A stretch of 44,680 nt of DNA from a virus (Duplodnaviria > Heunggongvirae > Uroviricota > Caudoviricetes): the IMG/VR virus record IMGVR_UViG_2721755657_000002; one strand, 5' to 3'. Made by a program: the position numbers and the translations under genes. Shown in pieces: positions 13,391 to 16,532 of this stretch. The notes under the pieces were generated by a model that did not search any database, was not told the DNA's origin, and worked only from the letters and a program-made list of their open reading frames with translations. The first letter of the stretch is position 1. Every line of letters starts with the position of its first letter.

Positions 13391-13488
13391 TTAAAGGAAA
13401 AGTTGCTGTCTGATTTTCATTAGTCTAACATTTTAAATGTTGGAATCGCAACGTAGTTATTATCATATAACAGCTTGTTTCCTGATTT

Positions 13489-13518
13489 AGCCAGCCTCCC
13501 CAAAGGCTGGTTTTTTTC
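13489..13518 (+). terminator. Rho-independent terminator downstream of Q (tR'-like)
   Basis: CCAGCCTCCCCAAAGGCTGG stem-loop followed by TTTTTTT. Confidence 0.55.
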
Positions 13519-13545
13519 TAATAAGTATCATTTCGGGTGGGGATT

Positions 13546-14070
13546 TTATTGTTTAACCCATAATAGTTCATTGACATTGAATCCCAACTTTTGAGCGGTA
13601 CGCACATAGTCTGCTTTTACATTATCTGGAATAGTTTGGGTCCTTGCCAGAATCCATAGGTATTCTCTGTTCGGACCACTGACAAGAGCATACTTATACT
13701 CATCATCCAGTTTGATTACATTATAGCCACCATAGAAGGGGCCAAAAAACGAAACTTTCAACGCTGCAGTTTTAGTATCTCCAGTAAAGTATGCTTTACC
13801 TTCGCTCTCGCTCCATTTGTTTTTCGTTGGATCGTATCCACGGTTAAGTACGCGAATCCCTCCGTCGTTCCGTTTTTCATAAGTAGCGCTGACCTGTTCC
13901 AGACCACGTTCGAACCAGTTCTCGAGGCGAGCTATTTCATACCATTTTCCGAGGTAGCGGTTGGCGTCAAAATTTGTAATCGGCTGCACACCTTTAGGTG
14001 GTGTCGGGGCCTTACATGCTATAAGAGTGAAAGAGAGTGCAATGCCAGTCAACACAGGCCATAACTTCAT
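13546..14070 (-). CDS. blc: Outer-membrane lipoprotein, bacterial lipocalin Blc family
   Basis: Lipobox LIAC after signal peptide; lipocalin motifs ...RYLGKWYEIARLENWFE..., ...YLWILAR...; on the opposite strand within the late region. Confidence 0.8.
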   Translation of the reverse strand: MKLWPVLTGIALSFTLIACKAPTPPKGVQPITNFDANRYLGKWYEIARLENWFERGLEQVSATYEKRNDGGIRVLNRGYDPTKNKWSESEGKAYFTGDTKTAALKVSFFGPFYGGYNVIKLDDEYKYALVSGPNREYLWILARTQTIPDNVKADYVRTAQKLGFNVNELLWVKQ

Positions 14071-14262
14071 AATAAATCCTGTACTTTTGATAGTTGAGAG
14101 TAAGTATGAAAGATAGATGAGTACGACCGATCACTTAAAGAACTTTCCTACTATATTAGGAATAGTCAATAACAGAAAAATTGTCAGTGATGAAGCCAGA
14201 AAGGCAATTTAGTCCGTGCACTACAAAGTTTATGTGTTAATGAATTAGTCAAGGGGGAGGAA

Positions 14263-15222
14263 ATGATAAAAAAACCTGTGATTGGGATCAGCGGTTGTTT
14301 GGGCGGTTCTGCTGTTCGTTTTGATGGTGGTCACAAAAGAGATGACTTTTTAATGGACAAATTAGTGGAATGGGTAACATTCAGACCAGTATGTCCGGAA
14401 ATGGCTATAGGGCTGCCAGTTCCGCGTCCTGCTCTACGACTTGTGCGCTCGAAGCAAGGAAATATACGGATGTGTTTCAGCCACGACCAGAATGAGGATG
14501 TGACAGAGAGAATGACAGAGTTTAGTCGTTCTTATATGGACAAATTAAAGGATGTATCGGGGTTTGTGGTTTGTGCTAAATCTCCCAGCTGTGGCATGGA
14601 GCGCGTGCGTGTCTATGATGAAAATGGTAATCGAGGTCGTAAAGATGGAGTGGGACTATTTACGAGCACTTTGATGGAAAAGTTTTCCTGGCTACCGGTT
14701 GAAGAGGATGGGCGATTACATGATCCAGTGCTTCGTGAGAATTTTATTGAAAGAGTTTTTGCTTTGCATGAGCTCAATCACCTTTACAAGGAGAAATTAT
14801 CAAGAAGAGAGTTATTAGCTTTTCATAGTCGTTATAAGCTTCAGTTGTTGGCGCATAGCCAGGCAGGCTATAAAGATATGGGACCATTTGTGGCTGCAAT
14901 ACACGAGTGGGCGGACCTTGAATCATACTTTGAGGTGTATCGTGATAATCTGATGGCGATTCTCAGAAAACCAGCATCACGTAAAAATCACACGAATGTG
15001 CTGATGCATATACAGGGGTATTTTAGTAATTACTTAAGTACACGCCAGCGTAAAGAGTTGAGCGAGGTTATACTTAACTATCGCTTTGGCACATTGCCTC
15101 TTCTTGCGCCGTTGACTCTGCTGAAGCATTATCTGGGTGAGTATCCTAATGATTACTTGCTTACACAGAACTACTTCGATCCCTATCCGGAAGAACTGGC
15201 TCTAAGACTGATGGTGAATTAA
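14263..15222 (+). CDS. DUF523 (TudS-like thiouracil desulfidase fold)/DUF1722 (YbgA-like) fusion protein
   Basis: N-terminus MIKKPVIGISGCLGGSAVRFDGGHKRDDF... plus conserved Cys residues; C-terminal helical region recalled as YbgA-like. Confidence 0.6.
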   Translation: MIKKPVIGISGCLGGSAVRFDGGHKRDDFLMDKLVEWVTFRPVCPEMAIGLPVPRPALRLVRSKQGNIRMCFSHDQNEDVTERMTEFSRSYMDKLKDVSGFVVCAKSPSCGMERVRVYDENGNRGRKDGVGLFTSTLMEKFSWLPVEEDGRLHDPVLRENFIERVFALHELNHLYKEKLSRRELLAFHSRYKLQLLAHSQAGYKDMGPFVAAIHEWADLESYFEVYRDNLMAILRKPASRKNHTNVLMHIQGYFSNYLSTRQRKELSEVILNYRFGTLPLLAPLTLLKHYLGEYPNDYLLTQNYFDPYPEELALRLMVN

Positions 15223-15619
15223 CTGTATGCGATATCATCTGAAAGTGATGAGTTCCTGTATGCAGGATATTTACAATCGTAAAAACTACGCTATGATGCT
15301 CATAGTGTCAGTTTTTATAAAAATCCTGTTCACGCTAAAGAAAACATTGAGATGCAATTTAATGTTGGTAAACATACCAGCCCCAAAAGATTTTATTCAA
15401 TCTGTTTTTATATGAAGATATTTCAAGTGAATATTAAGAGCATATAATATTATTATTGCACGCAGCTATTATAATATAACAGATTAGTTTAATGATTTGT
15501 TTTTTGTGAGTTAAACACATGGTTTTATAGTTGTGATGCAATGAGATTTTCCTTATTGTTGAACTGGCGAATATTGATTTTCCACCTATACTTACCTGGT
15601 GTAACCCCAATGATATCAG

Positions 15620-16342
15620 GTGGATAATATGCCATACATATGTTCTATCATTTTGGTGTTGAACTCGTTTGGTGTCCGAATTGGTAAAGAAGATATTTTG
15701 TTTAAAAAAGGAAATGCTGTCCTCATTGAATACAATTTAAAAGATCTTTTTTCGTCAAATACAGATCATCTAATGATCGTAGATGTTGAGGAGAAAACAG
15801 TTAATGATTTCTTTAAAAACTACACACTCTCACCTTTTTCTGTAAGAAGGTTTTATCCGTCATACTTGATAGTAGAATGTGAAGATTTTTCATTGTTAAA
15901 GAACTTGGTTGCATGCTTGAATTGTGATAGCAAAACCGTGGATGTAGTTAGAAATCAAATATCACTTGCATGTCTTGCTGTCTTATCTTCAGAGAAAATA
16001 GTGCAAAGTTTTTTGTTCGGAAGTCTTAATAGCTTAGGTTGTAAAGTTAAGGCTATTATTCACTCGGATATCTCTGCGTCATGGAGACTTTGTGATATAT
16101 CTTCAAGATTATATATGAGCGAGAGTTTGTTAAAAAGAAAATTAAAAGACGAAGGATTATCGTTTAGTAAATTAATTCTTGAAGAACGAATGATGATGGC
16201 GCAAAGATTATTGATCTACAGTAACCATACTGTCGGCAAGGTGGCGGGAATATGCGGGTATGACAATGCATCATATTTTGTAAGTGTTTTTAGAGGATAT
16301 TTTGGTGTGCCTCCGCACCAATATTTATCAAGATTTTCTTAG
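15620..16342 (+). CDS. AraC/XylS-family transcriptional regulator (AppY/GadX-like architecture)
   Basis: C-terminal dual HTH ...MAQRLLIYSNHTVGKVAGICGYDNASYFVSVFRGYFGVPPHQY...; very AT-rich gene and flanks. Confidence 0.85.
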   Translation: MDNMPYICSIILVLNSFGVRIGKEDILFKKGNAVLIEYNLKDLFSSNTDHLMIVDVEEKTVNDFFKNYTLSPFSVRRFYPSYLIVECEDFSLLKNLVACLNCDSKTVDVVRNQISLACLAVLSSEKIVQSFLFGSLNSLGCKVKAIIHSDISASWRLCDISSRLYMSESLLKRKLKDEGLSFSKLILEERMMMAQRLLIYSNHTVGKVAGICGYDNASYFVSVFRGYFGVPPHQYLSRFS

Positions 16343-16532
16343 AAGATATGATGTGATGGCATTTTATAAAGTTATTTTTTGAAGTGTAAGATTATACGAT
16401 ATTTTTAGCTACGCCAGAATAATTGCTGGCGTTTTTCTTTTTGAATAGATGTTCGGGCCTTACGCTAATGTAACTTCTTTCCTTCTTCGAACCAAACCGT
16501 GTACACCATCCGTTATCTGCGGAGGTGAGGCT

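Follow-up and report, generated by a model that had tools for sequence, protein, structure and literature searches.

A Blc-type lipocalin gene, a predicted tRNA 4-thiouridine desulfidase gene and an AraC-family regulator gene in the Q-to-holin interval of a Qin-type prophage

The interval between the antiterminator gene Q and the holin gene is the best-known site for accessory genes (morons) in lambdoid phages: Stx phages carry stx there, prophage DLP12 carries nmpC, and the Qin prophage of Escherichia coli K-12 carries cspB and cspF. Some genes of the kinds considered here are already known from phages, namely blc as a moron of lambda phages (PMC6969025), rudS through the activity of the phage enzyme RudS_vir (PMC11417400), and AraC-like regulator genes downstream of Q in prophages (reviews; annotation of strain Sakai). 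Here we describe this site in the DNA of IMG/VR virus record IMGVR_UViG_2721755657_000002, a 44,680-nucleotide stretch (hereafter the window) that constitutes a complete Qin-type lambdoid prophage, 34.6 kb of which is 99.99% identical to a prophage adjoining rspB in E. coli SC480. Positions 13391–16440, between Q and the holin gene, hold three intact open reading frames (ORFs) for a blc-type lipocalin, RudS and an AraC-family regulator, and the observation of an AT-rich three-gene block at this position is confirmed. The cassette is a typical mosaic moron arrangement that differs from the known ones in content, joining an envelope protein, an eraser of an RNA modification and a transcription factor. 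Its best explanation, which we consider highly probable, is that the interval represents cargo, made up of two independent accessory modules, in a mosaic Q-to-holin cassette of a Qin-type prophage. New here are the size of the RudS-carrying E. coli population, contrary to the literature, the conserved chromosomal pairing of blc with rudS and the capture of the pair without its MerR regulator, the association of the cassette with a single Q allele, and the separate history of the regulator.

Fusions of TudS to DUF1722 have been named RudS and strip 4-thiouridine (s4U) from tRNA (Jamontas 2024, Nucleic Acids Res, PMC11417400). In that study the TudS half supplied the [4Fe-4S] active site, a model placed the DUF1722 half on the anticodon arm and mutations within this half lowered activity, and mutation of the catalytic residues Glu51, Ser111, Ser113 and Arg60 of RudS_KT abolished activity. 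All six RudS proteins assayed lowered the s4U content of E. coli tRNA, among them over-expressed RudS_vir with its cysteines 12, 44 and 110, and over-expression of RudS_KT shortened the growth delay caused by ultraviolet A (UVA) light from ~105 to ~60 min. The same paper stated that E. coli lacks RudS, and it did not discuss the genomic context of RudS_vir or the linked blc and regulator genes.

The fusion gene of the window (rudS, 14263–15222, plus strand; 319 amino acids) encodes a protein 92% identical over all 319 residues to RudS_vir, which is gp66 of phage 1H12 (NC_049947), a phage that we found by DNA search with the window. The family PF04463 (2-thiour_desulf/DUF523) matches residues 7–149 with 137 bits (cut-off 34.7, E = 5.8e-40) and PF08349 (DUF1722) matches residues 192–309 with 136 bits (cut-off 22.5, E = 9.4e-40). 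Cys12, Cys44 and Cys110 align with the cluster cysteines of TudS (6Z92), and the window protein also has Glu46 (in CPE), Arg55 and Ser107/Ser109 (in KSPSCG), residues that were matched to those of RudS_KT by motif and by offset (−5 or −4, as for the cysteines), not by alignment. The initial annotation, made from the letters of the window without database searches, had likened the N-terminal half to the TudS fold, which is borne out by the family match, by all three cysteines of the cluster and by the catalytic set of Glu, Ser, Ser and Arg. Judged by these sequence features, the fusion protein is very likely RudS, a [4Fe-4S] tRNA 4-thiouridine desulfidase, in identity as well as in biochemical mechanism. 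It shares its length of 319 residues and cysteines 12/44/110 both with Salmonella ORF319/STM1389 (RudS_ST) and with RudS_vir, which also occupies the same place in a Q-blc-rudS-regulator-holin cassette; the window gene is a different allele on a Qin-type backbone with ydfU, in contrast to the lambda-type backbone with rusA-ylcG in 1H12.

In the mechanism we propose, the [4Fe-4S] cluster on Cys12/44/110, with Glu46, Arg55 and Ser107/109, would replace the sulfur of s4U8 in tRNA by oxygen while the DUF1722 half holds the tRNA, and the lower s4U content would in turn reduce UVA-induced cross-linking of tRNA and shorten the growth delay. With its complete TudS domain and unimpaired active site, the enzyme might instead serve salvage or detoxification by acting on free thiouracil or thionucleotides, as stand-alone TudS does, and among the RudS proteins tested RudS_vir gave the shortest lag on 4-thiouracil (PMC11417400). 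We regard this as very unlikely, because in the same study no RudS supported growth on thiouracil as TudS did, none worked on 2-thiouracil and all lowered tRNA s4U, while the DUF1722 half, modelled as an anticodon-arm binder, proved necessary for full activity. What stands of the initial suggestion that the enzyme could act on thiolated nucleosides is therefore the desulfidation of a thiolated substrate; free thiouracil gives way to s4U in tRNA.

By base composition the cargo interval is the most aberrant part of the prophage, with a G+C content (GC) of 38.0% against 48.6% for the window and 49.1% for the remainder of the window, the lowest value among all 3050-bp stretches of the 44.7-kb window. 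The parts differ, with 43.8% in blc, 43.3% in rudS, 33.5% in the regulator gene and 31.0% in the spacer upstream of it. Upstream, Q (13013–13390, plus strand; 125 amino acids from the RefSeq start, ORF open from 12998; PF06530, E = 8e-51), which RefSeq names 'antiterminator Q family protein', ends directly at the interval; downstream follows the EssD/S21 (P21)-type holin gene (16533–16748, plus strand; PF04971, E = 6e-34), the first gene of the lysis cassette, whose start is the ATG at 16533 (RefSeq) and not at 16449; it forms the right-hand limit of the mosaic cassette. Alignment with K-12 Qin runs through hokD-rem-ydfU as far as 12995 and takes up again at 16504 for the lysis genes, and K-12 Qin has a different Q (ydfT) with cspF/cspB at the site. 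Because homology to Qin stops at 12995 and resumes at 16504, the exchangeable unit is Q plus cargo, 12996–16503. In DLP12 a related Q and holin flank nmpC, which lies on the opposite strand and is, like blc of the window, an envelope protein gene in that orientation. The proposals of an AT-rich three-gene cargo island and of a Q-to-holin moron site are thus both borne out, by the ORFs, the flanking genes, the GC minimum and the different cargo that Qin and DLP12 carry there.

Several further candidates within the interval were rejected. A 62-codon ORF at 15227–15415 and the other small ORFs are very AT-rich, have no Pfam or family match, respectively, and were taken as non-coding. Noncoding RNA and tRNA genes were looked for because Stx and Sp4 phages have such genes, and Rfam (gathering threshold) and ARAGORN found none within 13391–16440. 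A role of the cargo in anti-phage defence was ruled against by PADLOC, which gave zero matches for the three cargo proteins at E ≤ 0.001.

Across 5426 complete E. coli genomes, rudS was found in 1135 (20.9%), in 1063 of them at a coverage of at least 80%, and its alleles fell into three bands. The whole interval reached at least 80% coverage in 882 of the genomes, and the regulator region was present in 924, mostly as an allele of 88% identity. For Q with its downstream spacer, 1077 genomes reached at least 80% coverage, a count similar to that of rudS, and the more distant Q matches were quuD of DLP12; the block and its particular Q allele move together as a single mosaic cassette. The trio, which the initial annotation had proposed to seek in other genomes, is thus widespread in E. 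coli, and it also recurs in phages: the regulator is present in all 12 isolated phage records that have rudS, and the order Q-blc-rudS-regulator-holin is kept in 70 of 80 IMG/VR contigs (~70 of the 72 with enough flanking sequence), about half with ydfU upstream and about half on another backbone. The initial annotation had set against the cargo view a widespread core block of typical GC; the block did prove widespread, but its GC is atypical and, being replaceable, it stays cargo. Two short contigs of a metagenome-assembled genome labelled 'Candidatus Nanosynbacter' (Saccharibacteria) also carry the cassette, at 85–98% protein identity, and are almost certainly mis-binned E. coli phage DNA.

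The proteins called 'YbgA family protein' by RefSeq in ~1100 complete E. coli genomes are phage-borne RudS, so that E. coli is not uniformly free of RudS, contrary to the literature, and differences between strains in tRNA s4U, in UVA growth delay and in 4-thiouridine labelling could trace to a prophage.

The block is also disrupted in places. Several otherwise identical prophages carry insertions of IS3, IS1, ISVsa5 or ISSen4 in it, making the AT-rich cargo a target of insertion sequences (IS). The Qin prophage of the BL21 lineage (Nico21(DE3), retrieved locus 5751–8340) encodes an identical Q and an identical lipocalin protein, but an IS3 element truncates its rudS after the first 147 bp, and the regulator, lysis and head genes are missing. 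BL21, the host of the published UVA assay of RudS, therefore carries a phage blc and a rudS stump itself. Insertions by IS3, ISVsa5 and ISSen4 in an AT-rich block and the shortened rudS of BL21 would suit decaying passenger DNA without current function. We hold that reading to be extremely improbable, given intact reading frames in more than 1000 genomes, an active ortholog of 92% identity (RudS_vir, PMC11417400), the retention of every catalytic residue, and purifying selection on all three genes, with ratios of nonsynonymous to synonymous divergence (dN/dS) of 0.10–0.23 (blc 0.10–0.23, rudS 0.14–0.22, regulator 0.20–0.22).

The lipocalin gene (blc, 13546–14070, minus strand; 174 amino acids; PF08212, E = 7.5e-43) encodes a member of the NCBIfam Blc subfamily NF007786, scoring 312.6 bits against a cut-off of 267 with an alignment over positions 1–174 of 176, and its top matches in the Protein Data Bank (PDB) are E. 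coli Blc structures (3mbt, E = 8e-67). In the N-terminus, MKLWPVLTGIALSFTLIAC-K, we read by eye the lipobox LIAC, Cys19 and a Lys at +2. The lipobox and the lack of Asp at +2 predict an outer-membrane lipoprotein; after export and lipid modification at Cys19 the protein would be sorted to the outer membrane, and lipid binding there is a property of Blc-type lipocalins. Known traits of Blc are the binding of lysophospholipids or fatty acids and expression in stationary phase (RpoS). The call of a Blc-like lipocalin on the opposite strand was therefore correct, and the domain calls for all three products lie above the curated profile cut-offs. PHROG matches likewise support the gene identities. 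Fold family, lipoprotein signal and size are common to the phage protein and E. coli Blc (b4149; PDB 1QWD, 2ACO, 3MBT), although host blc adjoins ampC and phage blc adjoins rudS. The phage lipocalin is 96% identical to 1H12 gp65 and only 59% identical to K-12 Blc, so lysogens hold a second, diverged lipocalin. In the study of lambda phages from infant stools from which 1H12 and its relatives come, blc was scored as a moron in >50% of 19 phages (Mathieu 2020, PMC6969025), and this 'blc' is the same gene as the lipocalin of the window; a paper on prophages of avian pathogenic E. coli that mentions a lipocalin (PMC7724020) concerns other genes.

For the origin of the pair, we scanned one genome per species across 185,579 species representatives for relatives of RudS. 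Chromosomal RudS of 66–76% identity was found in Citrobacter, Enterobacter, Leclercia, Kluyvera, Klebsiella, Pectobacterium and others, and 41 of 62 rudS loci of other Enterobacterales had a divergent blc at most 2.5 kb upstream. The phage Blc is 68–80% identical to the lipocalins of these 41 loci, and at 75–80% identity to rudS-linked Blc proteins of other Enterobacterales it stands nearer to them than to the Blc of E. coli (59%). In Citrobacter sedlakii and Citrobacter sp. JGM124, blc directly adjoins rudS, as it does in the phage, and in Enterobacter the gap between the two holds a MerR regulator gene with MlrA-type domains and a transthyretin/HIUase-like gene. Chromosomal rudS copies have a GC of 49–62% and usually enclose the MerR/MlrA-like and transthyretin-like genes, whereas the phage pair has a GC of 43–44% (13–18 points below most chromosomal relatives), no MerR gene and, between its two genes, a sequence that could not be aligned to its chromosomal counterparts. 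We therefore picture the first module as a divergent blc-rudS pair that would have been taken from an enterobacterial chromosome, with loss of the MlrA-like MerR regulator.

Two extensions of this picture failed. An operator retained from the MerR-controlled locus was rejected, as the intergenic region could not be aligned with that of C. sedlakii or JGM124 and a lone CTGTTAA-like motif is too weak; a recent donor was rejected as well, the best RudS from outside E. coli among the species representatives being merely 76% identical and of much higher GC. A MerR neighbour of rudS had been reported in E. cloacae and Salmonella, with an argument for light-induced expression and no mention of the lipocalin (PMC11417400). 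As a separate observation, an Enterobacter hormaechei locus (retrieved locus 4660–5898) and another 35 like it in Enterobacter and Leclercia encode a MerR protein with MlrA-type helical and C-terminal domains, and the transthyretin/HIUase-like protein encoded between blc and rudS in these genera is secreted; the four-gene locus blc-MerR-transthyretin-rudS is possibly controlled by light or stress. The conserved pairing of blc with rudS offers a lead on the role of bacterial lipocalins.

The second module is the regulator gene (ORF 15620–16342; 15629–16342 from the RefSeq start ATG at 15629, which has the Shine-Dalgarno sequence GGTGG; plus strand; 237 amino acids). Its AraC/XylS-family product matches HTH_18 with 59.9 bits (cut-off 33.6, E = 3.1e-16) and HTH_AraC with 42.6 bits (cut-off 26.6). 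Over the full length of ~230 residues it is 38% identical to PsrA of O157 Sakai, 33% to GadW, 30% to AppY and 29% to YdeO; the phage regulator of mEp332/ev099 is 47% identical over its full length, and GadX is 41% identical in the DNA-binding domain only. The N-terminal start M-x-x-x-C-S-(V/I)-I is common to the window protein and its relatives in the subgroup. The best NCBIfam profile is YdeO, yet the protein stays below the equivalog cut-offs throughout (YdeO 112 against 348 bits, GadX 90 against 500, HilD 92 against 354), and by sequence it is an unnamed paralog in a distinct clade of the GadW/AppY/YdeO/Psr subgroup and an ortholog of no named member. The family is narrow, with 24 clusters, all from E. 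coli, in the protein search. The initial label of an AppY/GadX-like regulator was right about a very AT-rich gene of the AraC type and about the group, but the closest characterised proteins are PsrA/PsrB and GadW.

An AlphaFold2 model of the regulator (predicted local distance difference test score 77.6) was matched over its full length to Rns, CsvR and ToxT by Foldseek, and superposed on the GadX DNA-binding domain with a template modelling score of 0.90 and a root-mean-square deviation (rmsd) of 1.7 Å. Full-length superposition on Rns and ToxT left an rmsd of ~14 Å that arises from domain orientation, and the Rns sequence aligned with the C-terminal half only. A fatty-acid pocket like that of Rns and ToxT was considered for the regulator and set aside, since at ~14 Å, and with the N-terminal half unaligned to Rns, the residues are not comparable.

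PsrA and PsrB (Z1789/ECs1087 and Z2104) and PatE are AraC-like prophage regulators of enterohaemorrhagic E. coli (EHEC) O157:H7 and are likewise AT-rich; as summarised in reviews, they switch on gadE and hdeA and, by an indirect route, repress type III secretion and the LEE. A similar action on AT-rich host promoters is our best guess for the window regulator, by analogy. Unlike the Psr and PatE genes, it shows no linkage to pch or to effector loci of the type III secretion system, and its clade occurs mostly in non-EHEC strains. In commensal and in avian or porcine strains it is a candidate regulator that could rewire acid resistance much as PsrA/B and PatE rewire it in EHEC. The psrA gene of Sakai prophage Sp4, which is lambdoid too, likewise follows a related Q that is 79% identical to that of the window at the protein level, and the full psrA ORF of 237 codons has the size of the window gene. 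In the Sakai record (ECs_1087, retrieved locus 13678–14391) psrA is annotated with 195 amino acids, and an upstream ATG gives 237; since this N-terminal extension aligns with the N-termini of the window regulator, GadW, AppY and YdeO, the true start of psrA is probably farther upstream than annotated. The homolog in mEp332/ev099 occupies the second classic moron site, that adjoining the integrase gene.

The regulator has a history of its own within the cassette. Identity of the window to 1H12 (91%) and to IdasGreatGrand (97%) extends to ~15340 and ~15380, respectively, breaks in the AT-rich spacer (15223–15628, 31% GC), and resumes at 15534 (1H12, 81%) and at 15442 (IdasGreatGrand, 88%), which marks the spacer as a recombination junction. 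Synonymous divergence from 1H12 is 0.58 in the regulator gene and 0.18–0.30 in blc and rudS (~2-fold), and from IdasGreatGrand 0.32 and 0.05 (~6-fold). The higher divergence of the regulator and the unalignable spacer together indicate a separately exchanging module.

This bears on whether the three genes form one unit in which the AraC-type regulator has replaced the lost MerR protein and controls blc and rudS locally. The constant company of the trio in phage records and IMG/VR contigs, the internal regulator of the chromosomal loci that the phage copy lacks, and scans in which no good constitutive promoter was seen for blc or rudS would all agree with such a unit. We consider it unlikely all the same, as co-occurrence is to be expected of genes that are separated by 400 bp and flanked by two conserved anchors, the regulator is 2–6 times more diverged at synonymous sites beyond an unalignable spacer, related regulators occur elsewhere without blc and rudS (psrA in Sp4, the mEp332/ev099 gene near the integrase), and the characterised relatives PsrA/B, GadW, AppY and YdeO act on host loci.

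Two intrinsic terminators on the plus strand bracket the cargo block, one directly after Q (13489–13520, a 9-bp stem with a T run) and a strong one in the gap between regulator and holin genes (16411–16440), both from the terminator scan and the sequence. The first is likely tR′, which would end a short pR′ transcript and shield blc from antisense transcription in the lysogen. A candidate pR′ (13403–13431, plus strand; TTGCTG-17 nt-TAACAT) matches 7 of 12 consensus positions, below the scan threshold, and was read from the sequence; it would yield a terminated RNA of ~80 nt, like the 6S RNA of lambda, and a cluster of −10-like hexamers at 13454–13471 (plus strand) may represent a sigma-dependent pause. 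The promoter consensus scan returned 13 matches against 10.7 ± 3.7 expected in shuffled sequence, no excess over chance, and consensus matching was rejected as a way to map the promoters. In the divergent blc/rudS intergenic region (14071–14262, 34% GC), which has strong ribosome-binding sites for both genes, the sigma-70 candidates are weak (at most 8 of 12), and the spacer upstream of the regulator gene contains candidate promoters at 15421–15448 and 15504–15531. Between the 16411–16440 terminator and the holin start, the promoter scans gave no promoter-like site on the plus strand, so that the lysis genes would be reached by Q-modified polymerase reading through the block; read-through from Q across the cargo is plausible.

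In the model that we infer, for its promoters and read-through as well as for silencing, regulator targets and any fitness effect, each cargo gene of a lysogen would be expressed from its own weak promoter between the two terminators, the second of which would end the cargo transcripts in the lysogen and would have to be passed by Q-modified polymerase. The AT-rich regulator gene would probably be silenced by H-NS, and the regulator, once made, would probably activate host promoters rich in AT, for example in the acid-resistance island. After induction, Q-modified polymerase would cross the 3 kb antisense to blc and in sense for rudS and the regulator gene, so that RudS and the regulator would also be made late in the lytic cycle.

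RudS might even be mainly an auxiliary of that cycle, with late, Q-dependent stripping of s4U avoiding UVA-stalled translation when sunlight induces the prophage. The sense orientation of rudS between Q and a holin gene without its own promoter-like site, its retention in the plaque-forming phages 1H12 and IdasGreatGrand, the shortening of the UVA growth delay by RudS (PMC11417400) and the constant inclusion of a particular Q allele in the cassette are all in keeping with this. However, on chromosomes rudS is a stress gene of the host, a short late phase leaves little time for assembling Fe-S clusters and treating a whole tRNA pool, and the antisense position of blc relative to the late transcript suggests expression during lysogeny; we therefore see the lytic role as possible but doubtful. 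For the physiological role of the mosaic cargo, lysogenic conversion of the UVA response, help to late-phase translation or a small effect could each apply.

Five points weigh against the reading as cargo of two accessory modules. The scans found no convincing sigma-70 promoter for blc or rudS, and pR′ itself is the 7-of-12 match described above. The assignment of regulator targets rests on 29–38% identity to characterised relatives. The IS insertions and the truncated BL21 copy indicate that the block is dispensable. The low GC of the phage pair against 49–62% in the chromosomal loci means that capture was old or came from an unsampled donor. RudS_vir, although well soluble, lowered s4U less than the other RudS proteins (PMC11417400), so the effect of a single-copy prophage rudS may be small.

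A joint reading would combine a Q-controlled phage eraser of a tRNA modification with a stress-response lipocalin as its partner and a Psr-like regulator set over the pair or over acid resistance; we think it rather unlikely. Were it true, prophages would set the level of the s4U8 UVA sensor, and with it near-UV growth delay and the stringent response, in about one-fifth of E. coli strains, and a phage induced by sunlight would strip s4U and let late translation continue. The lipocalin would then be a conserved partner of RudS in a response to light or oxidative stress that was originally MerR-controlled, and the Psr-like regulator might control blc-rudS or couple the pair to acid resistance.

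Elsewhere in the prophage, the SC480 copy has its tail-tip gene gpJ annotated as frameshifted (retrieved locus 42144–43050). Three RNA elements of the window scored above the Rfam gathering threshold, the small RNA DicF (4756–4807, minus strand), the sok antitoxin RNA of the hokD locus (10807–10981, plus strand) and IS009 near the tail-fibre end (41141–41339, plus strand). Directly 3′ of the lysis genes, another AT-rich cargo block (18100–19700, plus strand; 31–39% GC) carries cspI, ymcF, ynfN and gnsB, with a cspA-type thermoregulator (Rfam RF01766, 18294–18710) as the 5′ leader of cspI. Alone in the AT-rich gap from the replication genes to hok/sok, a gene at 8840–10174 (minus strand) encodes a 444-residue FRG-domain protein, for which PADLOC gives a match to its candidate defence family PDC-S15 (E = 6.7e-99). 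The gap is a second cargo site, and the gene possibly acts against phages.

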